The translations under genes and the position numbers were made by a program. DNA of 64,000 nt from an uncultured Candidatus Saccharibacteria bacterium (GTDB lineage: Bacteria; Patescibacteriota; Saccharimonadia; Saccharimonadales; JALRHH01): the NCBI GenBank assembly GCA_964639295.1, contig CAZXDT010000003.1:1304-65303 (forward strand), read 5' to 3'. The notes under the pieces were generated by a model. That model had not been told where the DNA came from, searched no databases, and was given only the letters and a program-made list of their open reading frames with translations. Positions 1,386 through 62,030 of this stretch are shown piece by piece. The number at the start of each line of letters is the position of its first letter. Position 1 is the first letter of the stretch.

Positions 1386-1515
1386 TTTGTTTTTCCTTTT
1401 ATATACTTTGTTTATTTTTTAGTATTAATGACCTATTTTTACCATAATACTCTGGGTAAACGCAAGCACTTTCACAGCATAGTTTTCCACAGGTAAGCAC
1501 TGAGGTGCACGCACT

Positions 1516-1666
1516 CCACACTTGAGATCATTTGGATTTGTTTGAGCGAAACGTAAAGGAGCCGTACTTAGGTACGGTGACTGTGTATCGTAAGCAAACA
1601 AATTCGAAGGAGCCAAGAGGCTGGCGGGTTACAAGCTCAGCTTGTAAGCAGGCCAGCCGGTGTGGG
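1516..1666 (+). ncRNA. Family-1 structured intergenic element, copy A (candidate ncRNA or REP-like repeat)
   Basis: Closing stem CCACAC/GTGTGG; hairpin GCCGTAC-ttag-GTACGGT; terminal hairpin GGCTGGC..TTACAAGCT-ca-AGCTTGTAA..GCCAGCC. Homologous to copies at 27247, 37809 and 61161. Confidence 0.6.
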
Positions 1667-1680
1667 GTGTGTTTGCAGTA

Positions 1681-1778: not shown

Positions 1779-3104
1779 TTAGAAAGTAGCAGTTGCTATA
1801 AAGTCTGCTTGCACAGTGTACGAACCAGTTGGTGTCGTAATACCTGACAGAGCTGCAAACTTTAGAATCAATGCTTCGTCGTCGATAACCTTTACTGCTG
1901 AACCAGTTGAGGTCGCGATGGTTGTCGTGTTAGCAGGATCTGCGTCCCAGGCATAACCACCATTTGTGGTGCCAGCTACTTGGTCGATATCAGTTACGAA
2001 TGTACCTGTACCGTTGCCGTCGTATGCTCCATCACGGACTACATTACAACCTACGCCACCAGCGGCACATGTGTATGCACTGGTGCTACCACCGTTGATG
2101 CCGGCAATGGTCATACCGAATTTCTCACCGGTTGTACCAACTATAAATGCGCCTTGTGATGCACTTGTGTTGAAACATTGGTCAGTTGTACTTGTAGATA
2201 TTGGAGAAGCAGTACAAGTCGCACCGGGCACTTTGAGGGAGCCAGAGCTGGTCTCTGAAAGCGAGTGATATGCAATACTCGCACCGTTAAAGGCGTTTGT
2301 ACGGATCATCGCTATCGCGTTGGTGTTACTACCACCGTTAGTTGTACTCACCGGAGACACGTTAGTAGCACTGCTATCGATGTTACCGATATCAACACTA
2401 GAGGTACCAGCAAGGGTGACTGCTGCACAGTCTGCACCAGGTGTCGTAGTATCGGTGTTAACTGTTGTTGATGCCACACAGAAGTCTAGACGTTCCTGGA
2501 CACGTGCGTTGACGGTCAAGGTCTGTGAAGTACTTTGTGCGAAGACACCTTCCCACTTCAAACTCGTAGCAGGGTTGTCGTCGTAGATACGTACACGTGT
2601 GTAGTACGACTTGTTGACTGCTGCATTGTTAGTAATGTCAGCTGCACCAAGCGTAATTTTTAGTGCCGTTTTACTTGTTGCATCGTCGGCATTGGTCTTA
2701 ACGATATCAATCTGGTTATTTAAACCGTTAGATGATGCCGTACGACCATCCACTCGCGTGGTCGAGGTAACCGCAGTACTCGTCCACGGACCCGACAGTG
2801 TGGCAGTTGGTGCTATAGCAACACTTGGCGTGTTTACGGTTGTACACGTACCAAGCGGGCTGTCACAGAACTGGATTTCGATTGTCTTTGCATTCGCAGT
2901 ATCAGCCGTAGTATTGAACGTCCACTCTAATTGAGTGTTCGTCGAGGGTTGGGCACTCGTAGATGTAAGCATACGAGATGTAATGGTCGGAGCAGCTCCT
3001 GCTGTCGCTGGCAAAAGTGCTGGCAACACTCCAACTGCCCCAAGAATTACAACCTTAGTCCACAACGATACCCTACGCATTTGTAGAGTTATGTTTTGAG
3101 ACAT
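1779..3104 (-). CDS. Secreted Thr/Ser-rich surface protein, tandem paralog 2 (441 aa from the AAGGAG-preceded ATG)
   Basis: Long ORF. The ATG at 3104 is preceded by AAGGAG; the ORF track starts 21 nt upstream at 3125. Has a signal peptide and is a paralog of the 66..1385 product. Confidence 0.8.
   Translation of the reverse strand: MSQNITLQMRRVSLWTKVVILGAVGVLPALLPATAGAAPTITSRMLTSTSAQPSTNTQLEWTFNTTADTANAKTIEIQFCDSPLGTCTTVNTPSVAIAPTATLSGPWTSTAVTSTTRVDGRTASSNGLNNQIDIVKTNADDATSKTALKITLGAADITNNAAVNKSYYTRVRIYDDNPATSLKWEGVFAQSTSQTLTVNARVQERLDFCVASTTVNTDTTTPGADCAAVTLAGTSSVDIGNIDSSATNVSPVSTTNGGSNTNAIAMIRTNAFNGASIAYHSLSETSSGSLKVPGATCTASPISTSTTDQCFNTSASQGAFIVGTTGEKFGMTIAGINGGSTSAYTCAAGGVGCNVVRDGAYDGNGTGTFVTDIDQVAGTTNGGYAWDADPANTTTIATSTGSAVKVIDDEALILKFAALSGITTPTGSYTVQADFIATATF
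2221..2558. repeat. 338-bp tract 100% identical to 508-845 (inside paralog 2)
   Basis: Same manual comparison. The identical spurious + strand ORFs 552..758 and 2265..2471 in the ORF track confirm it. Confidence 0.9.
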
Positions 3105-3379
3105 ATAGTTCTCCTTAATTAACATACGTGGTGCGCACAGAGAGCCTGCATATCTTAGGATCTGGATTTAATAACAAGCAAGAGAAGCCTTCAAGCACAC
3201 GAACTAGACCAATTATATGGATTCGTTTTACTAACGGCGTCGCAAGCTGTCACTTTAGCGTCGCATATGTTTGATTTATATTGATTGTTTTTGTTTTAGG
3301 TTAATATGCACACTATTCATACCATATTATTGTGCATTAGCACAAGCAGTTATCCACAGATACACGTATCCCCTACTAC

Positions 3380-6154: not shown

Positions 6155-6177
6155 TCTAACACCTCACAAAGGGTTCT

Positions 6178-6293
6178 GAGCTTGAGTGTAGCTTGGGATG
6201 CTCATCGAGGCTTGACCTTGAGGCGTACTAAAAGTACGGCGAAAGGTCAGACGTAAGATAAGCGCCCAAGATGCGCCAAGGTCTGAAGCCGCC
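6178..6293 (+). ncRNA. Family-1 element, divergent/truncated copy E
   Basis: CTTGAG..TTGGGAT head. Stem GACCTT/AAGGTC encloses hairpin CGTAC-taaaa-GTACG. Then ACGTAAG and GCGC-ccaagat-GCGC. The long 3' hairpin is missing. Confidence 0.4.
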
Positions 6294-6294
6294 T

Positions 6295-6618: not shown

Positions 6619-6788
6619 GATGGACCCTTCTCAGATCCTAGCTCTGTTAAGTGAAAACACTGCTGGCGAGTACCATTTTTCAGTTTTTGTGAGGAGACAT
6701 ATCCGTAGATACGTTGACGAGCAAAACTGGTAAATGGTGCCGCCAGGAGGGTTTGAGGCTGGAGGGAGGGTTTGAGAAGAGTCCATAC

Positions 6789-24931: not shown

Positions 24932-25312
24932 TGGTGGAGCTGGCGGGGTACCGCCCCCCGCGTCCGCTAGTTTATCTAATTAGTCTATCCTACAGGTATA
25001 GTTTGCTTGAATACAACATGGAGTGAAAGCAAACAAAAGTCCACGAGGTTTGATCCTTGTCTTAGTCCGACTACGGATCAATTGCCGGAAGCATCCAGAA
25101 ATATATGTTACGACTAGTGCTATCTGGCGTCACTCTAGGCGCAGCTGTAGGCAATTAAGCTACAGCGAAAGCAGGCTCAGGGAACAAACGTGCCTTGAGG
25201 TCTGCAATCAAAGAAGTGCGATCTGCAATTACTTTGAGTTTGTCTATAACGCTGACAAGCGACCTGCTGATCTAACTGATAAAGTCCAACGTCGAGCTTA
25301 AAATTCAGCCCC
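24932..25312 (-). ncRNA. ssrA: tmRNA (SsrA)
   Basis: 5' GGGGCTGAATTTTAAGCTCGACG. 3' ...CCCCGCCAGCTCCACCA. Acceptor stem with a G3-U pair. Internal tag ORF ...ADRTSLIADLKARLFPEPAFAVA-TAA. Confidence 0.9.
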
Positions 25313-26687: not shown

Positions 26688-27224
26688 ATGAGCAAAACAC
26701 ATATTAGAAAGTTCAAGTGGGCGTACATACTGCTGTTTTTTGTACTAGCTATTGGTTATGTCATTTTCCGTTTCTTTAACCCCAGTGTTGGTTTTACCTA
26801 CTATGAACCCTCCTACGTACCAGCAAACATATCTGTTAAAACCAAAAGAATAAGCATCACTCGGGGGAATGTTCAGGTAGAGCAAGACTTCAGAACAGAA
26901 GATTGGGTCTACAGCATTAGTGAGTACAAATCCGACGAGTCAATTGGTGACGCAAAGCAAAACTACGACCCTAAAAGCATTACACCAACATGCGAGATCC
27001 GAATTTCACCAGTCAAGACACAGTATCGCTTATGTCACTGGATTGACTATGGAAAAATCGACGTTCACGAAATTAAGTTTATAAAGAATGGTACTTTTAT
27101 AGATGCACAAATTCCTACTGAACTAAAGGATCAGATCACCGTAGATCAGCTAGACACCTTTGTTGATTCGTTCAAGAAAAAGAGTACGATTGGCCTGCCT
27201 GTACTCCGTTCTAACGGAGCCTAA
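26688..27224 (+). CDS. Membrane-anchored hypothetical protein (178 aa)
   Basis: ORF with an N-terminal TM segment. Confidence 0.7.
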   Translation: MSKTHIRKFKWAYILLFFVLAIGYVIFRFFNPSVGFTYYEPSYVPANISVKTKRISITRGNVQVEQDFRTEDWVYSISEYKSDESIGDAKQNYDPKSITPTCEIRISPVKTQYRLCHWIDYGKIDVHEIKFIKNGTFIDAQIPTELKDQITVDQLDTFVDSFKKKSTIGLPVLRSNGA

Positions 27225-27246
27225 TAACTTGTGCGGACAACAGGTT

Positions 27247-27397
27247 CCACACTTGAGCCAATTTGGATTTTCTTCTGCGAAACGTAAAGGAAACGTATCT
27301 AAATACGTTGACTGCGTATCGTAAAGAAGAAAATTCGAAGTGGCCAAGAGGCCAGCGGGTCATGGGCTCCGCTCATGAGCAGGCTGGCCGGTGTGGG
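27247..27397 (+). ncRNA. Family-1 structured intergenic element, copy B
   Basis: CCACAC...GTGTGG closing stem; hairpin AACGTAT-ctaa-ATACGTT; terminal hairpin GGCCAGC..TCATGGGC-tcc-GCTCATGA..GCTGGCC. Confidence 0.6.
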
Positions 27398-27405
27398 ATC
27401 TGTGA

Positions 27406-28632
27406 CTACCAGTAGTGGTGAGCGATCCAGAAATTGTATGCTCCCGACCAGCTGCCATATCGCCCGGATGCATAGCCACTACACCACTTCAGCTGTGTTA
27501 CTGGGTTTGTTCCCCAGTCAGCACCAGCTGTAGCCATCTTGCTGCCTGGGAGTGCCTGACAGAGACCAAACGCACCACTTGGGTTACGTGCAGCCGCGTT
27601 CCAGCCTGATTCACGGCTGACAATGTAGTTCACATACGGGAAGTCAGATCGGCTGATACCTGCAGCAAGCATTGTTGCTTCCTTATCTGCTGGGATAAAT
27701 ACAGCGCGGCCACGGGCAACAATCTGTTTAACTGGTTCTACTGCGACAATCGACTGTATTTCCTTACGACCAACTTCTTTGCCGTTTTGTGTATCTACCT
27801 GATAAGTAACCAATTTTTTACCTGGAGTTCCCTTTTGCCTGACGGCAACAGATCCAAATGACAGACTCGGGTCCTCAATAGTCTGTACTTCGTTTGCAAT
27901 TACTTGTTCCTCAGTAACTACCTTACTACCGTTACGGACAACAAAAATCTGTGACTGAGGTGTAATTGGCGTCTCTGTTGCAGGCTGCACAGTATCGTCC
28001 TTAGCTAGTTCTACTTTCTTTTCCTTGAGCAACTCACCGACGGTCTTTGCGTGCGTACGTACTGGTACCTGCGTGCCGTATAAGTTCAAGTTAGTTGGCG
28101 TAGCGCGATCAATAACAACCTTCTCACCAATCGCTCCATCACGGAGGAAGTCAGTCTCCATTTGGCTTTCAATCTTGTCCTCCGGGAAGACATCTACTCC
28201 AGCCTGGCTCGCCACACTACGCGGTGTTGTAGCAGCGCTAAAGGCAAATGTCTTACGACCGTTATCAATGACGGTTACTGGACGTGATCGATAAATATTA
28301 ATACGGAACTTCTCATCCAAGATTGGCGTGTCAGCGCTCGGCTCAACAATATCACCTTCGTTAAGCGGAATGTTTACACGCTGCAGGAACTCACCAACTG
28401 TCTTGGCACGAGTTGGCAGTGTCTCTTGTTTCTTGTCATGGCTAAAAACAACCAAGTGGGAATCAGACGGAACAACCTTTTCTGCACTCGTAGAAACAAA
28501 AATAGCTAGAGATGCAAAAAACAGCACCAATATCATTACCACTGGGATAACTAATGGGTGTTTGTGCCAATTGTGGCGGGTCAACCATGCAATTGGCTTA
28601 CGCCAATGTATTGTAGGTTTAGGTATAGTCAT
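27406..28632 (-). CDS. RpfB/YabE-like cell-wall protein (DUF348 repeats, G5 domain, C-terminal transglycosylase-like domain)
   Basis: N-terminal TM; repeated KTVGE(F/L)L..(V/I).L motifs; G5-like VRQKGTPGKKLVTYQV; C-terminal SRESGWNAAARNPSGAFGLCQALPGSKM. Confidence 0.8.
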   Translation of the reverse strand: MTIPKPTIHWRKPIAWLTRHNWHKHPLVIPVVMILVLFFASLAIFVSTSAEKVVPSDSHLVVFSHDKKQETLPTRAKTVGEFLQRVNIPLNEGDIVEPSADTPILDEKFRINIYRSRPVTVIDNGRKTFAFSAATTPRSVASQAGVDVFPEDKIESQMETDFLRDGAIGEKVVIDRATPTNLNLYGTQVPVRTHAKTVGELLKEKKVELAKDDTVQPATETPITPQSQIFVVRNGSKVVTEEQVIANEVQTIEDPSLSFGSVAVRQKGTPGKKLVTYQVDTQNGKEVGRKEIQSIVAVEPVKQIVARGRAVFIPADKEATMLAAGISRSDFPYVNYIVSRESGWNAAARNPSGAFGLCQALPGSKMATAGADWGTNPVTQLKWCSGYASGRYGSWSGAYNFWIAHHYW

Positions 28633-37364: not shown

Positions 37365-37393
37365 ACATTAGCATAAGTATGATGAGTTGTCAA
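37365..37393 (-). promoter_or_regulatory. Sigma70-like promoter, leaderless layout
   Basis: TTGACA-17-TAATGT, then atgtca, then ATG 37358. Confidence 0.6.
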
Positions 37394-37400
37394 TGTAGAG

Positions 37401-37534
37401 GATCTCGAGGGGAGTCGAGTCACCTTCGGCGACCCCGCGACTTCTACCATGAAAGCACAGCTTTCAGGTGAAGATCACCTTGCGAATTGCCACTGGCAAT
37501 TCTCACCCTGTTACCGGTAACAGGAGTTCGAGTC
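37401..37534 (-). other. E1: tRNA-Glu 3'-half-derived composite module with an 87-nt structured insert
   Basis: Four parts: an inverted partial tRNA copy; a direct copy (palindrome CCTGTTACCGGTAACAGG, 37507-37524); the insert at 37419-37505; and an exact 18-nt tRNA 3' end at 37401-37418. Confidence 0.7.
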
Positions 37535-37540
37535 ACAAAT

Positions 37541-37570
37541 ACCAAAACAAAAACCCCAGACTAGCTGGGG
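37541..37570 (-). terminator. tRNA-Glu terminator
   Basis: CCCCAG-ctagt-CTGGGG followed by TTTTTGTTTT on the - strand. Confidence 0.8.
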
Positions 37571-37579
37571 CTCTTGTTT

Positions 37580-37654
37580 TGGTGATCTCGAGGGGAGTCG
37601 AACCCCTGTTACCAGGATGAAAACCTGGTGTCCTAACCGTTAGACGACGAGACC
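37580..37654 (-). tRNA. tRNA-Glu(UUC), CCA encoded
   Basis: Manual cloverleaf: GGTCTCG acceptor stem, anticodon loop TTTTCAT, T-arm GGGGTTCGACTCCCC. Confidence 0.95.
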
Positions 37655-37720: not shown

Positions 37721-37752
37721 AAACCCCTCCCTAGTGAAAGAGAGGGGTTTTC
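37721..37752. terminator. Bidirectional hairpin terminator
   Basis: AAACCCCTC...GAGGGGTTT flanked by A and T runs. Confidence 0.6.
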
Positions 37753-37808
37753 TGGCCTATAGGCCGGAGCGGTCAGTCAAACTACTCGTTTGGCTGGGAC
37801 CGACATAT

Positions 37809-37959
37809 CCATACTTGAGACAATTTGGATGCGACTCTGCGGAGTACAAGGAGCCGTACTAAAGTACGGTGACTGCACCCCGCAAAAAGAGGCAAGTTCA
37901 AATGGTCCAAGAAGCCAGCGGGTCGCGAGCTCCGCTCGTGAGCAGGCTGGCTGGTATGG
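37809..37959 (+). ncRNA. Family-1 structured intergenic element, copy C (most divergent full copy)
   Basis: Closing stem CCATAC/GTATGG; stem GCGGAGTAC/GCACCCCGC; hairpin GCCGTAC-taaa-GTACGGT; terminal hairpin AGCCAGC..TCGCGAGC-tcc-GCTCGTGA..GCTGGCT. Confidence 0.6.
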
Positions 37960-37968
37960 AATGTCGGG

Positions 37969-39378
37969 TTAGCTACGACGAGCTAACACAAGGCGGTGAG
38001 CCATAGCACCAGCTACTGTAATAGCAGCAAAGATACCAAGGATATCGCCAGCACCAGTATCTACCAACTTAGTTGGAGTCTCTGGAGTGTTGTAGTTTAC
38101 TTTACCTTCACATACGCTTGTCTGATCAACGTCATTAACATTGAATCGAACAGTTGCGGTAAGTGAATATTCACCATCTTCGGCGTATGTGTGCTCTACA
38201 TTTGCTACCTTGTCAGTAACAAGTGGCGTAGAACCATCACCAAAGTCGTATGTTACGTTCTTGAACGTAACACCGTTCTTGGCAGTGTACTTAACACCGA
38301 GGTTGACCTTACGGCCATCAAGCTTAGCAACCTGCAAGAGATCACACTTGTACTCGGGAGCTGTAGTTACACAATCCTTTTGTACGTTAACCGTCGCAGA
38401 GTCGTTGTATTGACCAGTTTGGTCAGTATCAACAACTGCGATGTTCTTGATGTTGTTCATGCCACAAGCAAGACTTGTGCCTGGGTCTACTGTTGCCACA
38501 AATGTGATCAACGCAGAAGCACCTGGCAAGAGTGTGCCGACATTTTTACGGCCACTGAAGAAAGCGTTTGCTTCATCAGCAGTCATAACCGTACCATTGT
38601 ATGAACCGTAAAACTTCTTGGCTGTGCCAGGGACGAATGTTACGCCCTTTGGAAGTGGGTCACGGAGGTATACGTTAGTAAGGTTTGTGTTACTCAAGTT
38701 CTTAGCTTGAACAATGTATTCAACACGAGCACCAGGCTGTGCAACTAAGTTGTCAGTAGCCTGAGTTGTGCCACCTTCATTGTGCACGTACTTGTAGATA
38801 CCAACTGATGGGATCTTAACACGAGCCATGAAAGTAACGGTTGCTTCGAACTCGTGACAAGGCTTAACATCTTCAATAACTGCACCACTAAGGATAATGC
38901 TATCGTTGATTTGCTGTGTCACAAGGTTCTGGTCGGTACGAGTACCAACGTTGTGCTTCCAGTAGACGCTACCAGGAATAAATTCTAGGTTAGCGTCTGC
39001 ACGGTTTAAGTTAACCGTAGCGGTGTCGGTAATGGTGTTGGTGTTATCACCCTTCATCGTTACCTTTACAACTTGGTTCGTACCAGCAGCAGTTGGCATA
39101 TCAATCTTGATTTTAAAGTTTTCCGCAACACGGTTAGATTCCGGTAGTTCGCGGTTGTGGTAGTAGACAGAGAATTTTACAACTTCGTCATACTTCGCAT
39201 TTGTGCTTGTCTTGTATGTAGTTTCACCAGTAGTCTGGTTGGCTACGCCAATAGATCCTTCCATGAGGACATCAACTGCCATCACAGAGTGGATTGGAAG
39301 TGCAATCAAAGCAAGTAATGTAACCATAAATAGGCTCACTCGCTTTGGAGCACGCTTTAGGTATGAAAATAGTTTCAT
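37969..39378 (-). CDS. Cell-surface repeat protein (DUF11-like beta-sandwich) with a C-terminal sorting-signal-like tail
   Basis: Signal peptide. C-terminus LVDTGAG, then a hydrophobic stretch, then RLVLARRS. AAGGAG RBS. Confidence 0.8.
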   Translation of the reverse strand: MKLFSYLKRAPKRVSLFMVTLLALIALPIHSVMAVDVLMEGSIGVANQTTGETTYKTSTNAKYDEVVKFSVYYHNRELPESNRVAENFKIKIDMPTAAGTNQVVKVTMKGDNTNTITDTATVNLNRADANLEFIPGSVYWKHNVGTRTDQNLVTQQINDSIILSGAVIEDVKPCHEFEATVTFMARVKIPSVGIYKYVHNEGGTTQATDNLVAQPGARVEYIVQAKNLSNTNLTNVYLRDPLPKGVTFVPGTAKKFYGSYNGTVMTADEANAFFSGRKNVGTLLPGASALITFVATVDPGTSLACGMNNIKNIAVVDTDQTGQYNDSATVNVQKDCVTTAPEYKCDLLQVAKLDGRKVNLGVKYTAKNGVTFKNVTYDFGDGSTPLVTDKVANVEHTYAEDGEYSLTATVRFNVNDVDQTSVCEGKVNYNTPETPTKLVDTGAGDILGIFAAITVAGAMAHRLVLARRS

Positions 39379-39495
39379 AACAACTCCTTAAATTAAAATT
39401 ACAGTATCGGTTAATTCCGAAAGGTTCCCACATTGAACATTCTTTTTGCTGCTGAGAACACGAGTTGTTAAAGGTCGCCACCTGGCGCACTAATG

Positions 39496-39521
39496 CAAGT
39501 CAAATCATTACAAGTTATATA
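39496..39521 (+). repeat. Left 26-bp inverted repeat
   Basis: caagtcaaatcattacaagttatata versus the reverse complement of 41641-41666: 23 of 26 match, with a 17-nt perfect core. Confidence 0.85.
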
Positions 39522-39648
39522 GGGTGTAACAGGGTCAGGATGGTCGCTTTCGCGTAAGAATAATGCCTAAGCATCACTCACCAACCTGGCCCCTGTTTGC
39601 TACACCTGTAACCTATCTGTTGCAAAGCAACGTTGTTTCGAATGGGAT

Positions 39649-39730
39649 TGGTGGTCCCGGTGCTGCAGTAGCTGACTCGTCGGTGAGGACGAATCAAGAA
39701 CTGTGCGATTAAACGCAGCAACACCGGGAC
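39649..39730 (-). other. tRNA-like hairpin: 9-bp acceptor-like stem ending in ..CACCA
   Basis: GTCCCGGTG...CACCGGGAC followed by CACCA. No T-loop or anticodon arm could be drawn. Confidence 0.35.
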
Positions 39731-39788
39731 AACCAGAGATCACGCAGGCGAATGCCTCAAAGACCCAGAAGGGCGCGTGAACATGTGC

Positions 39789-41313: not shown

Positions 41314-41390
41314 GAGATTTCCCCTTTCCTAGGGAGGTAGAACCAGTTCGAGAGCTCCATGCGGAACTCTTATAGCTGTAGTCTCCCTAG

Positions 41391-41443
41391 TAGGGACAGC
41401 ATGATTGCAGTCAAACTCGTTAACTGCGAACATGCTGTCCCTA
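41391..41443. repeat. 13-bp perfect inverted repeat hairpin
   Basis: tagggacagcatg / catgctgtcccta, with a 27-nt loop that itself pairs (TTGCAGT/ACTGCGA). Confidence 0.85.
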
Positions 41444-41530
41444 AGGAAATATCGAAACAATAGATTGGTTACAGTGTGTATTTGTTCTGCATGGGAGCTT
41501 CTAGAGGTAAACCTCAATAGACGCTGCAAC

Positions 41531-41598
41531 CAGTGCAGACCGTCTAATACTAGCGTGACAAGAAGAACTAACCACCTAATACTACTCGGTCTGCACTG
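41531..41598. repeat. 12-bp perfect inverted repeat
   Basis: cagtgcagaccg / cggtctgcactg, with a 44-nt spacer. Confidence 0.85.
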
Positions 41599-41619
41599 TT
41601 TACTTTCCTTAGCAGAACT

Positions 41620-41639
41620 CCGGTATCTGTTGATACCGG
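41620..41639. repeat. 8-bp stem hairpin abutting the right inverted repeat
   Basis: CCGGTATC-tgtt-GATACCGG. Confidence 0.8.
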
Positions 41640-41640
41640 T

Positions 41641-41666
41641 TATATACTCTGTAATGATTTGACTTG
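41641..41666 (-). repeat. Right 26-bp inverted repeat
   Basis: Its reverse complement caagtcaaatcattacagagtatata matches 39496-39521. Confidence 0.85.
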
Positions 41667-41806
41667 TTAACGTGCCCGCTGTCTATGAATTCCTGGCCTC
41701 TTAGAAGCAGCAAAAGCAGAGCCATTGCTGGTCTGCTATACTATTCCACCTCTGTAAAAGTCCAGTTACGGGTTAAAACCTCACACCCATAAACAAGGAT
41801 GCTCTA

Positions 41807-41835
41807 AATATACCACAAAATACCTTTTATGTCAA
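41807..41835 (-). promoter_or_regulatory. Strong sigma70-like promoter facing the high-G+C unit
   Basis: TTGACA-17-TATATT on the - strand. Confidence 0.55.
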
Positions 41836-41884
41836 TTACTTTCAACACCTTTACGGTAAAACACAAGCGTTTTGCAACCCCTGT

Positions 41885-51496: not shown

Positions 51497-51500
51497 TAAT

Positions 51501-51529
51501 AAAACACCCTCCTCGCCGAGGGTGTTTTA
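51501..51529 (+). terminator. tRNA-Lys terminator (T1)
   Basis: ACACCCT-cctcgccg-AGGGTGT followed by TTTT. Confidence 0.8.
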
Positions 51530-51544
51530 TTATGCTGAGCTATG

Positions 51545-51688
51545 TGGACTCGAATTCTCGACACGCCAAAGGGTGTCGAGGTGAGAACTGCCTGTGGCAG
51601 TTCGCAAGGGAGCCAACTCTTGCAAACTGGTTTGCAAAGATGTTGCGACGGGTCGGCTGAAAGTCGGTCGAGTCCCTCCTGGCCCTCC
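51545..51688 (+). other. E2: tRNA-Lys 3'-half-derived composite module with an 86-nt structured insert
   Basis: Four parts: an inverted partial copy at 51545-51563; a direct 12-nt copy at 51569-51580; the insert at 51581-51666; and an exact 22-nt tRNA 3' end including CCA at 51667-51688. Confidence 0.7.
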
Positions 51689-51852
51689 AGATGGCTTGCG
51701 CAAACTCAATGTTCCTCCCGGCTCTCCAAGCATAAGCATCATAAAAGGCTTCTCGCTAGTAGGGGTAGCCGAGGGCTACAGAGTAATTTTACCGGGTTGT
51801 TCTAATACAACGCCCTTCATTAGAGAAGTCGAATCCTTGGTGTTTTTAACTA

Positions 51853-51881
51853 TTGACAATTTAACTTGCTTATGTTAATAT
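51853..51881 (+). promoter_or_regulatory. Sigma70-like promoter, leaderless layout
   Basis: TTGACA-17-TAATAT, then 6 nt, then ATG 51888. Confidence 0.65.
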
Positions 51882-51887
51882 GTTCTT

Positions 51888-55387: not shown

Positions 55388-55404
55388 ATTAGTTTTACAC
55401 TTCT

Positions 55405-55432
55405 AAACGACCAGCTTACGCTGGTCGTTTTT
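55405..55432 (+). terminator. Hairpin terminator (bidirectional form)
   Basis: AAACGACCAGC-ttac-GCTGGTCGTTT followed by TT. Confidence 0.75.
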
Positions 55433-55523
55433 GGTACACCGGGCTGGGTAGTGCACATCTTTAGCCATGCTCGGTGCGAGCACCTGCGCGTGGCTTTGAT
55501 GACCGAACCATGGATCGAGTCCA
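55432..55523 (-). other. E3: degenerate second copy of the tRNA-Arg 3' part
   Basis: Contains GGACTCGA. CAGGTGCTCGCA resembles tRNA CAGGTGTCGCA. It ends CCGGTGTACCA, versus CCGGGTGTACCA in the tRNA. Confidence 0.45.
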
Positions 55524-55545
55524 GGCTCGATAAATCGAGTTGAAA

Positions 55546-55573
55546 TTAAAACCGCCCCCTTAGGAAGCGGCTT
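55546..55573 (-). terminator. tRNA-Arg terminator
   Basis: GCCGC...GCGGT stem followed by TTTTAATTT on the - strand. Confidence 0.6.
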
Positions 55574-55583
55574 AAATTTCACC

Positions 55584-59623: not shown

Positions 59624-61153
59624 ATGGGCATTATGTCAGATACAAACGAGAAAATTGGTCACCTTATTTATCAAGTACGACAAGAACGCGGTATGACGCA
59701 AGCAGAGTTTGCACGCAAGCTCGGTACCAGTCAATCAGCCGTTAACCGTATAGAACACGGCAAACAGAATCTCAGCCTTGAGACACTCGGCCGCATCAGT
59801 GATGTACTGAAGAAGCCCTTGATTACCCTTGGCACCAACGCGATGAACTTCAAAATTGAAGGTGGCCATGAACTCAGTGGGACTATCCAAACAAATGTAT
59901 CCAAGAACGCTGCGGTTTGTCTCTTATTTGCTGCCCTACTCAATAAAGGAACAACGCGGTTCAAACGTATGCCTCGCATTGAAGAGGTCTACCGAATTAT
60001 CGAAGTGCTGACGAGTATTGGTGTCGGTGTTAAATGGCTACCTGGTAATGATTTAGAGATTAAACCCCCTGCTGAAATCAACATGAGCAAGATGGACAAT
60101 GTCGCTGCACGTAAAACCCGCAGTGTCATTATGATGCTTGGCCCACTCATGCACCTGTTTGACGATTTCCGGATCCCATACGCTGGTGGCTGTAAGCTTG
60201 GTACTCGTACCGTTCAGCCGCACCTGTTTGCTCTTGAGGAATTTGGCGTTGATATCATCGCCAAGACCGGCTTCTACCAGGTTAATGTAACCAAGAAGCA
60301 GCCAGAAGAGATTGTGCTGTACGAATCTGGTGACACCACTACAGAAAACGTCATTATGGCTGCTGCCAAATTTGACGGCGAAGTAACTATCAAGATGGCT
60401 AGTGCTAACTACATGGTCCAAGACCTGTGTATCTTCCTTAAGAAACTTGGTGTCAAAATTGACGGTATTGGTACCAGCACACTCAAGATCCGTGGCGTAA
60501 AAGACATTAAGAAGAACGTTACGTATTCACCAAGCGAAGACCCTATTGAATCTATGACCTTCATTGCTGCTGCAGTTGCTACCAACTCAAAGCTCACTAT
60601 TTCTCGCTCACCGATTGAATTCCTGGAGCTAGAACTCCTTAAGCTCAAGAAAATGGGACTCAAAGTTGATGTATCGGAAAAGTACAAAGCCGATAACGGA
60701 CACACTGATCTTGCGGACATTACCGTCCATAAACACAACGGCGAACTACGTGCGCTAGAAGAAAAGATCTATGCTCGTCCCTTCCCTGGGCTTAATATCG
60801 ATAACCTGCCACTATTTGTACCAATTGCCGCAGTCGCTAAAGGCCGCACATTGATCCATGACTGGGTCTATGAAGAACGCGCGCTGTACTACACAGAAAT
60901 GCGTAAACTAAACGTCAACGTCACCTTAGCCGATCCACACCGTGCATACATTGACGGGCCAACCAAGTGGAGTGCAGCTGATGTCGTCTGCCCACCTGCA
61001 CTGCGCCCAGCAATGCTGCTTCTTATTGGTATGTTGGCTGCAAATGGTGACTCTGTGCTACGTAACGTCTACTCCATTAACCGTGGATATGAAGATTTTG
61101 CAGAACGACTCAGTAGTGTCGGGGCGCATATCTCCCTAATGCACGAGATTTAG
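59624..61153 (+). CDS. murA: XRE-HTH domain fused to UDP-GlcNAc 1-carboxyvinyltransferase
   Basis: Residues ~10-65 form an HTH (RGMTQAEFARKLGTSQSAVNRIEHGKQN). The rest is MurA-like (SKNAAVCLLFAALL; active-site loop GGCKLGTRTV). The start may be ATG 59633. Confidence 0.9.
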   Translation: MGIMSDTNEKIGHLIYQVRQERGMTQAEFARKLGTSQSAVNRIEHGKQNLSLETLGRISDVLKKPLITLGTNAMNFKIEGGHELSGTIQTNVSKNAAVCLLFAALLNKGTTRFKRMPRIEEVYRIIEVLTSIGVGVKWLPGNDLEIKPPAEINMSKMDNVAARKTRSVIMMLGPLMHLFDDFRIPYAGGCKLGTRTVQPHLFALEEFGVDIIAKTGFYQVNVTKKQPEEIVLYESGDTTTENVIMAAAKFDGEVTIKMASANYMVQDLCIFLKKLGVKIDGIGTSTLKIRGVKDIKKNVTYSPSEDPIESMTFIAAAVATNSKLTISRSPIEFLELELLKLKKMGLKVDVSEKYKADNGHTDLADITVHKHNGELRALEEKIYARPFPGLNIDNLPLFVPIAAVAKGRTLIHDWVYEERALYYTEMRKLNVNVTLADPHRAYIDGPTKWSAADVVCPPALRPAMLLLIGMLAANGDSVLRNVYSINRGYEDFAERLSSVGAHISLMHEI

Positions 61154-61160
61154 CCAGCTT

Positions 61161-61309
61161 TCACACTTGAGCCAATTTGGATTTTGTTCTGCGAAACGTA
61201 AAGGAGCCGTACTAAGGTACGGTGACTGCGTCACGTAAAGAGGAAAATTCGAAGGGGCCAAGAGGCCAGCGGATGGCGAGCTCCGCTCGACAGCAGGCTG
61301 GCTGGTATG
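61161..61309 (+). ncRNA. Family-1 structured intergenic element, copy D
   Basis: TCACAC...GTATGA closing stem; GCGAAACGT/GCGTCACGT stem; GCCGTAC-taag-GTACGGT hairpin; GGCCAGC..CGAGC-tcc-GCTCG..GCTGGCT. Confidence 0.6.
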
Positions 61310-61436
61310 AATGCTGGCTAACGTAGAAGATCTTCTAGGTGAGACTTGTAGCCTGTCTTTAGATACATAATGTAGCTCAACGCTATAACAATGAGTGTCA
61401 CTAATATGACTGTTCGTTGCCATTCTTTGAGGTTTT

Positions 61437-62030
61437 TCATGGGCGAACCTCTGCAAGTTTAGCTGTAATTACTAACCTATCTTTTGCGGACCATAATGGA
61501 GTACATGTGTAGATCGTTAGTGTTGGATCTGCTGTTTGAGCTATGAGTGATGTATCTGTTGGGGGTACTTGGTTAACACCAGTTACCAAATAATCGTATC
61601 GTTTGCCCTGCCAATATAATGTCATTTCATCACCGGTATGTACTTTATCGAGGTAATAAAAAACTGCTTTGCCACTATAAGTGAATCGGTGCCCTGCCAT
61701 AATTGTGTTACCACCAATAATTGGCGTGCTGTTATCTGGTAGGTGCCATATACCTTTGTTAAGAGTGTGTTGATCTGGTCCATCAAACACCTCCTCTCGC
61801 ATATTGAGTACTGGAATGACCAATGTGTTTTGTTGAGGGATCGGGGCATTTACAGCAACACTGGTTGGAGCTTTATGTGAAATCACGGGCGCCTCATATC
61901 GCGTCCACCAGGTTAATGCAGGTAAAAATGGCCATGCAAGAATATACAACGCCAAAACAATAACTACTACTGCTAAACCATTATTAAGGCGACGATGGGT
62001 AATAATGCCATGCATGTACCTATTGTACAT
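61437..62030 (-). CDS. Sortase-family transpeptidase
   Basis: N-terminal TM; catalytic His context (MAGHRF); TLxTC-type motif LTIYTCTP; downstream Arg. Confidence 0.85.
   Translation of the reverse strand: MYNRYMHGIITHRRLNNGLAVVVIVLALYILAWPFLPALTWWTRYEAPVISHKAPTSVAVNAPIPQQNTLVIPVLNMREEVFDGPDQHTLNKGIWHLPDNSTPIIGGNTIMAGHRFTYSGKAVFYYLDKVHTGDEMTLYWQGKRYDYLVTGVNQVPPTDTSLIAQTADPTLTIYTCTPLWSAKDRLVITAKLAEVRP

Follow-up and report, generated by a model that had tools for sequence, protein, structure and literature searches.

A repeat that lies between genes in Candidatus Saccharibacteria folds, on one strand, into a three-way junction with covarying helices, and we consider it probable, with some reserve, that the copy studied here (copy C) is one insertion of a non-autonomous, MITE-like, strand-specific structured element of about 165 nt. 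On the same assessment, the family to which it belongs, F1, is known so far from a narrow clade of Candidatus Saccharibacteria and is part of a wider structured intergenic set. We analysed a stretch of 64,000 nucleotides (the window), which contains genes for ATP synthase, glycolysis, MetRS, PcrA, a helix-turn-helix (HTH)-MurA fusion, a sortase, a G5-domain protein and tmRNA. Named homologues come from Candidatus Saccharibacteria. The original prediction had placed copy C at 37809-37959; these coordinates turned out to be the core of a real, full F1 element at 37801-37966 on the plus strand. BLASTN and nhmmer searches with the copy C region found the three other copies of the window. F1 repeats are 164-171 nt long, and all four copies in the 64-kb window are on the plus strand:

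1509-1672, plus strand: copy A, 171 bits, downstream of the minus-strand gene 1779-3125
27240-27403, plus strand: copy B, 178 bits, between the plus-strand gene 26688-27224 and the G5-domain gene (stop at 27406)
37801-37966, plus strand: copy C, full-length F1 (covariance-model positions 1-164), cmsearch score 145 bits, E about 1e-32
61154-61317, plus strand: copy D, 163 bits, between the murA stop (61151-61153) and the stop of a 39-aa ORF (61318-61320)

Copy C has the lowest covariance-model score of the four (145 bits, in a range of 145-178). Its divergence from the other copies, put at about one third in the original prediction, is 22-32%, with identities of 72% to copy B, 78% to copy D and 68% to copy A. 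The copy had also been said to end 10 nt from the stop of the neighbouring surface-protein gene. This proved incorrect: because the closing stem extends further (CCGACAT...ATGTCGG, 37800-37967), a single base separates the element from the stop codon at 37969-37971.

The F1 consensus is a three-way junction with a closing stem (P1), a long left arm and a right arm (P3). Its parts in copy C are as follows:

37801-37815, plus strand: 5′ strand of P1, pairing with 37953-37966
37816-37909, plus strand: left arm (P2a-P2d), a long irregular hairpin in which P2a is UGAGACA/GGUCCA
37913-37952, plus strand: right arm P3, AGCCAGCGGGUCGCGAGC-UCC-GCUCGUGAGCAGGCUGGCU, with a conserved asymmetric internal loop
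37953-37966, plus strand: 3′ strand of P1, followed by one more paired base (37967), one unpaired base and then the stop codon

All four stems that had been drawn for copy C are present. The closing stem, described as the 6-bp pairing CCATAC/GTATGG, is there but is 14-15 bp long plus one further pair; its outer part (CGACAT) is specific to copy C, and its inner part (TCCATAC) is conserved across F1. P1 forms a terminal inverted repeat of 13-17 bp in every F1 copy. Its sequence is conserved only at the first base (C) and the inner TCCACAC; the outer 4-7 bp always pair but differ among copies, which is atypical for terminal inverted repeats. The left arm is capped by a 7-bp hairpin (CCGUAC-loop-GUACGG) bracketed by tandem G·A/A·G pairs within GGAG...UGAC, and in copy C this apical hairpin is GCCGUAC-UAAA-GUACGGU at 37853-37870, with the same flanking pairs. 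One of two copies at a related locus (L022a) has a right arm nearly identical to that of copy C and a very different left arm, and arms therefore appear to have been exchanged between subfamilies. When copy C is folded with its flanks, the minimum free energy structure contains about 13 bp of further pairing beyond P1 (37785-37799 with 37969-37983), which reaches the last DUF11 codons, includes several G·U pairs and may be due to chance.

The region 37809-37959 folds with -73.6 kcal/mol (z = -6.1 against shuffles), and 63 of the 68 consensus pairs are standard in copy C, the five exceptions lying midway along the left arm and in GCGGAGTAC/GCACCCCGC (one A·C there). Between copies C and B, pairing is retained at 14 pairs in which both sides have changed and at 9 in which one side has changed. 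Across nine F1 copies, standard pairs make up 94.4% of cells, compared with 34-38% after displacement of the 3′ partners by 1-3 columns. Both sides change in 37 of 68 pairs, and none of 500 shuffles reaches any of the observed measures. Double-sided changes affect 9 of 14 pairs in helix 1 (P1) and 9 of 16 in helix 6 (P3). With ten copies, including two more divergent ones, compensatory changes are found in 32 of 60 predicted pairs. Paired columns of the F1 alignment vary more (0.291) than unpaired columns (0.199), as expected of a structured nucleic acid, and the conserved loop and junction nucleotides are AAGGAG, UGACUG, CCAAGA and GCAGG. The earlier view that copy C preserves its stems by covariation has thus held up under both a covariance model and pair statistics. 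Helix covariation goes beyond phylogeny, as in structured non-coding RNAs, the folded molecule being RNA or DNA. We conclude that the F1 fold is maintained by compensatory substitution.

The two strands differ in how well they support this fold. Consensus pairs include 66 G·U cells versus 9 A·C cells, and three G·U pairs vary little or not at all. In each of the 14 elements compared, the element sense folds more stably than the complement, by 5.5-29 kcal/mol, with the smallest difference in copy C (-83.9 kcal/mol in the plus sense versus -78.4 for the complement). This G·U excess and the uniform difference in stability indicate that the selected fold is on the plus strand. Searched on the opposite strand, the covariance model scored at most 30 bits at F1 loci and at most 27 bits at the four window loci. 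The plus strand is the folding strand and is antisense to almost every surrounding gene; the orientation is antisense in 9 of 9 elements that lie between co-directional genes or beside a tRNA gene. By GC skew the minus strand is the leading strand; the plus strand is C-rich (negative GC skew), which makes it the template of the leading strand and not the strand exposed on the lagging-strand template.

Ten F1 copies are known, with scores of 54-178 bits: the four of the window, one each at L001, L003, L004 and L008, and two at L022. The covariance model (R1) was built from the first eight. L022, a locus with a 90% identical PcrA, carries the two others, which are far more divergent but full length (63 and 54 bits with R1); an R1 search of 48.7 kb from L028, L029 and L030 returned zero copies. 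Pairwise, F1 copies differ by 15-50%. They are dispersed (four in the 64-kb window, two over 22 kb of L022), and those of the window lie at intervals of 10-26 kb amid housekeeping genes (ATP synthase, glycolysis, murA). Exact-pattern scans were overly strict and recovered few true copies: one in the genome collection (L001, from a Saccharibacteria MAG) and three in metagenomes (L003, L004 and L008, all from one metagenome). A further seven viral and six metagenome pattern matches were rejected as a phage protein-coding gene or chance. The phage gene, a conserved protein-coding gene unrelated to F1, was matched by a 21-base pattern in seven IMG/VR contigs and one metagenome contig (L009, L011-L017), and these loci vary in a third-codon-position manner. 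Viral scans with right-arm and apical patterns gave no match, nor did BLASTN of F1 against plasmid and phage collections. At the gathering thresholds of Rfam 15 the window matched tRNAs and tmRNA alone, and a permissive Rfam 15 search around copy C gave nothing above 17 bits at E ≤ 10. The tmRNA gene (24932-25312, minus strand; Rfam 59 bits) was missed by ARAGORN. Literature searches on structured RNAs, MITEs and small RNAs of Saccharibacteria or Patescibacteria gave no description of F1.

F1 has structured relatives in the window:

6167-6294, plus strand: F2 hairpin-only element of 128 nt, R2 122 bits, R1 15 bits, fold z -6.1
6620-6786, plus strand: superfamily hairpin element of 167 nt, R2 18.7 bits, fold z -9.2, filling the atpD-atpC junction

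The F2 element at 6167-6294 has the same apical motif without the right arm; it adjoins the atpC stop (6295) and has a plus-strand gene on its other side. Further F2 elements, at 5460-5585 of L001 and 14103-14228 of L022, occupy the same kind of site as F1. R2, the model built from F2 elements, matches the left arm of F1 copies at 17-37 bits, and the apical GGAG-hairpin-UGAC motif is common to the F1 left arm and F2. The same motif occurs in the 6620-6786 element, which folds with -83.7 kcal/mol versus -61.0 for its complement. At L003, where AtpD is 98% identical, a full F1 copy stands where the window has the F2 element, with different boundaries. The two families alternate in this way at two sites, one following atpC and the other the G5 gene, with F1 in one genome and F2 in a close relative and again with differing boundaries, which suggests repeated independent use of a few permissive sites. 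Other intergenic regions of the window also fold better than shuffles (z -4.9 to -7.0; 39379-39788, 41314-41884, 51497-51887 and 55388-55583), and there is weak similarity between 39444-39521 and 41641-41715.

The surroundings of copy C are as follows:

37580-37654, minus strand: tRNA-Glu (UUC), the nearest gene 5′ of copy C
37722-37755, either strand: G+C-rich hairpin followed by a T run, the probable terminator of the DUF11 gene transcript
37969-39378, minus strand: DUF11/PKD surface-protein gene, 469 aa (Pfam DUF11 1.2e-10, PKD_4 9.6e-08)

The product of the DUF11/PKD gene has, in translation, a C-terminal LVDTG sorting-type motif, and its stop codon (37969-37971) adjoins copy C. As copy C lies between this stop and the terminator-like hairpin, the 3′ untranslated region of the DUF11 mRNA probably includes its complement. 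A second repeat family, of about 190 nt and 63.5% identical, is present at 37393-37578 and 51498-51692 in inverted orientation; each copy begins immediately 3′ of a tRNA gene (tRNA-Glu on the minus strand, tRNA-Lys on the plus strand), and both regions are strongly structured.

In 9 of 10 F1 copies, an opposite-strand gene has its stop codon 0-2 nt from the 3′ end of P1 or overlapping it. The exception is copy A, which is separated from the minus-strand gene 1779-3125 by the terminator hairpin of that gene (1694-1715). Copy D adjoins a 39-aa ORF that is annotated in relatives. This hydrophobic ORF (61318-61437, minus strand; MKNLKEWQRTVILVTLIVIALSYIMYLKTGYKSHLEDLLR) lies between murA and the sortase gene and is conserved in relatives; in the mechanical ORF list it is masked by a spurious 106-aa ORF spanning copy D. 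MurA itself (EPSP-synthase fold; 59624-61153, plus strand) has an N-terminal Cro/C1-type HTH domain, a fusion conserved in more than 100 Saccharibacteria homologues. Scans for sigma-70 promoters and terminators around the four window copies found nothing common for a plus-sense transcript. Copies B, C and D lack a T run after P1, whichever strand is read, and so do not have the form of intrinsic terminators; separate terminator hairpins adjoin copies A and C. Within operons, the complement of P1 bears the Shine-Dalgarno sequence of the downstream gene, as judged from the placement of AGGGAG 6 nt before the NUDIX ATG in L022a, where it comes from the P1 complement of the element, and of GAAGGG ahead of the atpC ATG in the complement of the 6620-6786 element.

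Comparison with relatives identified five sites that are filled in one genome and empty in others with 82-91% identical proteins. At site D, where the window carries an element, L020 (MurA 91% identical) has none: its sequence reads CTCTAGCGC, and the stops of murA and the 39-aa ORF share an overlapping CTAG. These stops stand on either side of the window element as TTAG...CTAA. The gene tables of P0002 and P0004 likewise leave no intergenic gap at this site. The PcrA/NUDIX (L022a) and PK/PGK (L022b) junctions are filled in L022 and empty in the window, L028, L029 and L030, and the empty junctions measure 1-21 nt, some with overlapping stop and start codons. Site B, occupied in the window, has no element in L028, L029 and L030, and at site C no element follows the homologous DUF11 gene of L022. 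On the gene strand, L022b reads GAG-TAG-[element]-TAG-AAT, and its empty counterparts have a single stop codon. Some PcrA homologues of Saccharibacteria (P0182, P0193 and P0220) are about 1080 aa long and contain intein/Hint domains (PF14890, PF01079), which the window PcrA lacks.

Direct repeats of at least 3 nt flank 4 of the 10 F1 copies at symmetric boundaries (GTTAC in L001, CTAG in L003 and L004, CTA in L022b); of the others, two have TA or AT and four have no flanking repeat. An unbiased longest-common-substring test for target duplication was not significant (p about 0.45), and the claim of a duplication therefore rests on this subset of copies and on the filled and empty sites, whose pairs would fit a duplicated TA or TAG. 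The apparent repeat consists in part of the palindrome CTAG, indistinguishable from an extension of the stem. From these comparisons, target duplication at F1 insertions is likely, and F1 is probably mobile. Given the presence/absence polymorphism, selection may act on propagation of the element itself and not on a host RNA.

These properties are those of a MITE: F1 is shorter than 500 bp, non-coding and dispersed, with terminal inverted repeats and presence/absence polymorphism. On the reading that we favour, a transposase encoded elsewhere would insert F1 with a short target duplication of about 2-4 bp. The target would often be YTA or CTAG on the element strand, that is, a stop codon on the gene strand, so that insertion there would rebuild the stop. 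Where genes leave almost no intergenic space, as in this genome, insertions at stop codons would be the ones to survive, and inside operons the complement of P1 may equip the downstream gene with its ribosome-binding site. Conservation that is specific to one strand suggests that the single-stranded plus-sense form would be recognised for propagation, either as the transcript of a master copy or as a single-stranded DNA (ssDNA) intermediate. The host would tolerate only the orientation that puts the weaker-folding complement into mRNAs.

Several findings fit a MITE less well. The outermost 4-7 bp of the inverted repeat vary, which is unusual for ends that bind a transposase. DDE-type cut-and-paste alone leaves the conservation of a fold on one strand unexplained. 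The scans of the four window copies gave no conserved plus-sense promoter or terminator, and the placement of the plus sense off the lagging-strand template argues against an ssDNA route of the IS200/IS605 type. Moreover, copies are 15-50% apart, yet some insertions postdate the split of relatives with 90% identical proteins, which would require many diverged active lineages. Neither a transposase nor an autonomous parent was found among 40 window ORFs, which by Pfam were housekeeping or without match, or in the other loci examined.

The enterobacterial ERIC/IRU and neisserial Correia/NEMIS sequences are bacterial MITEs that fold as RNA. Like F1, they are non-coding, dispersed, 100-170 nt in length and bounded by terminal inverted repeats; they occupy transcribed intergenic space by gene ends, show insertion polymorphism between strains, and have RNA folds that depend on orientation, G·U becoming A·C on the other strand. 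Their target duplications contain TA, as the likely ones of F1 would. They differ in being one long imperfect hairpin with sequence-conserved ends, whereas F1 has a three-way junction, variable outer ends, heavy compensatory change, antisense orientation and a spacing of 0-2 nt from stop codons; F1 shares no sequence similarity with them and has no Rfam match. The pneumococcal BOX, RUP and SPRITE repeats resemble F1 as structured intergenic repeats that have been modelled by covariance, are concentrated at gene 3′ ends and show an orientation bias with respect to transcription. Mobilisation of RUP has been attributed to an IS630-type transposase that acts in trans and duplicates TA. F1 comes from another phylum, differs from these repeats in sequence and architecture, and has no candidate mobilising IS in the window and loci examined. 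As these elements and REPIN are described, F1 is set apart from ERIC, Correia, RUP/BOX and REPIN by its architecture, ends, orientation and stop spacing.

Alternatively, F1 could be a family of genes for trans- or cis-antisense small RNAs, transcribed from the plus strand as three-way-junction RNAs of roughly 165 nt, possibly with read-in to the 3′ end of the convergent gene and a protein partner for the GGAG-hairpin-UGAC motif. We consider this fairly unlikely. It would account for the plus sense as the selected folding strand, for the convergent arrangement with gene 3′ ends, and for loops and junctions that are conserved as in functional RNAs, where unpaired columns vary less than paired ones. 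However, no conserved plus-strand promoter or terminator was found; where copies fill the PcrA/NUDIX and atpD/atpC junctions without spacing, a promoter would sit inside the downstream coding sequence. The polymorphism and the reuse of sites by subfamilies fit insertion and not conserved genes.

It is unlikely, to a slightly greater degree, that F1 acts in cis within host mRNAs and is read in the sense of the genes (minus strand), as a 3′-untranslated or intercistronic structure serving transcript stabilisation, processing, insulation or translational coupling, as for REP and ERIC. The complement is very likely transcribed in host mRNAs, judged from position (copy C precedes the terminator hairpin 37722-37755), some intra-operon copies bear the downstream ribosome-binding site, and the distance of 0-2 nt to stop codons would suit such a role. 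In E. coli, REP sequences that lie no more than about 15 nt from a stop codon have been reported to affect translation. The gene-sense fold is, however, the weaker one in 14 of 14 elements. Wobble pairing is conserved on the other strand (66 versus 9), the three near-invariant G·U pairs become A·C mismatches, and close relatives have no element at the same junctions.

A folded element mobilised as ssDNA, by an HUH enzyme (RAYT or IS200/IS605-type) or a tyrosine recombinase in the manner of REPINs or attC sites, is improbable. Such a route would explain a conserved structure with variable end sequences, a strand-specific fold that tolerates G·T pairs and the strict orientation bias. REP sequences and RAYT-mobilised REPINs are, like F1, extragenic, often placed right after stops or between convergent genes, dependent on a hairpin and possibly active as single strands. 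A REP measures 20-40 nt and has a conserved GTAG, and a REPIN is a doublet that forms a simple hairpin, whereas F1 is a single unit of roughly 165 nt with three helices; F1 has no GTAG signature, and no RAYT or Y1 transposase was found among the 40 window ORFs scanned. Integron attC sites also conserve structure over sequence, fold on one strand and lie immediately 3′ of ORFs. They are placed in cassette arrays next to an integrase and have R and L core boxes (GTTRRRY), whereas F1 copies are scattered and carry no such cores; we rejected an attC identity for F1, whose copies are 10-26 kb apart among housekeeping genes. The flanks of F1 are variable, with no constant target tetranucleotide on one side, and some copies have direct repeats on both sides. 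REP and attC hairpins are much simpler than the three-way junction, neither a Y1 nor an IntI gene occurs among the 40 ORFs, and the folding strand is the leading-strand and not the lagging-strand template. Variable 5′ flanks, inverted-repeat ends and this choice of strand likewise distinguish F1 from IS200/IS605 ends and the TnpB omega-RNA.

Three further candidates were rejected. A retron non-coding RNA does not fit a multicopy element with no reverse transcriptase nearby and the wrong order of arms on the folding strand. The substitutions are compensatory and not adenine-specific, unlike those of DGR template repeats. A type I toxin-antitoxin system was excluded because the 39-aa ORF beside copy D is conserved in relatives without the element.

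A small protein gene on the minus strand is refuted: the peptide-like frame (PLRFAE.NPNWLKC), although open over most of the element in several F1 copies, has no conserved start, contains in-frame stops inside the conserved stretch in copies C and L004 and is shifted by indels. The original prediction was right that this frame is broken in copy C, and it is broken in L004 as well. It had named third-position excess and a conserved start in this frame as the pattern that would favour coding, and both were looked for and absent. The codon-position comparison it had called for gave flat variation (0.246, 0.238 and 0.227 differences per site at positions 1, 2 and 3). A profile of the pseudo-peptide found nothing at E ≤ 10 among 5.8 billion proteins, which counts against coding, and gave no new F1 copies by way of spuriously called ORFs. 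All tests run agree with the proposal in the original prediction that an RNA or DNA structure, and not a protein, is under selection, and we conclude that F1 encodes no protein.

Returning to insertion as the preferred explanation, we raise one speculative form of it, which we consider unlikely: F1 would propagate through its folded plus-sense single strand (RNA or ssDNA), by an enzyme that reads the shape and the GGAG-hairpin-UGAC motif and not the sequence of the ends, inserts at stop codons and rebuilds them. If true, such shape-recognising propagation would be a kind of mobility distinct from DDE-type MITEs, REP/RAYT and IS200/IS605. In a variant of this reading, copies may have been domesticated as antisense or insulator RNAs in ultra-compact genomes of the candidate phyla radiation (CPR).

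Saccharibacteria and other CPR bacteria have tiny, tightly packed genomes, in which mobile elements and regulatory RNAs are believed to be few. F1 is a structured repeat that occupies the sole free positions of such a genome, the stop-codon junctions, including those of essential operons (atpD-atpC, PK-PGK and PcrA-NUDIX). Its three-way-junction fold shows unusually rich covariation and is absent from RNA databases (Rfam searched). F1 insertions are markers of recent genome change between close strains and possible modulators of operon expression, and if the strand-specific fold reflects a transposition intermediate, they would point to a mechanism of mobilisation not yet described.
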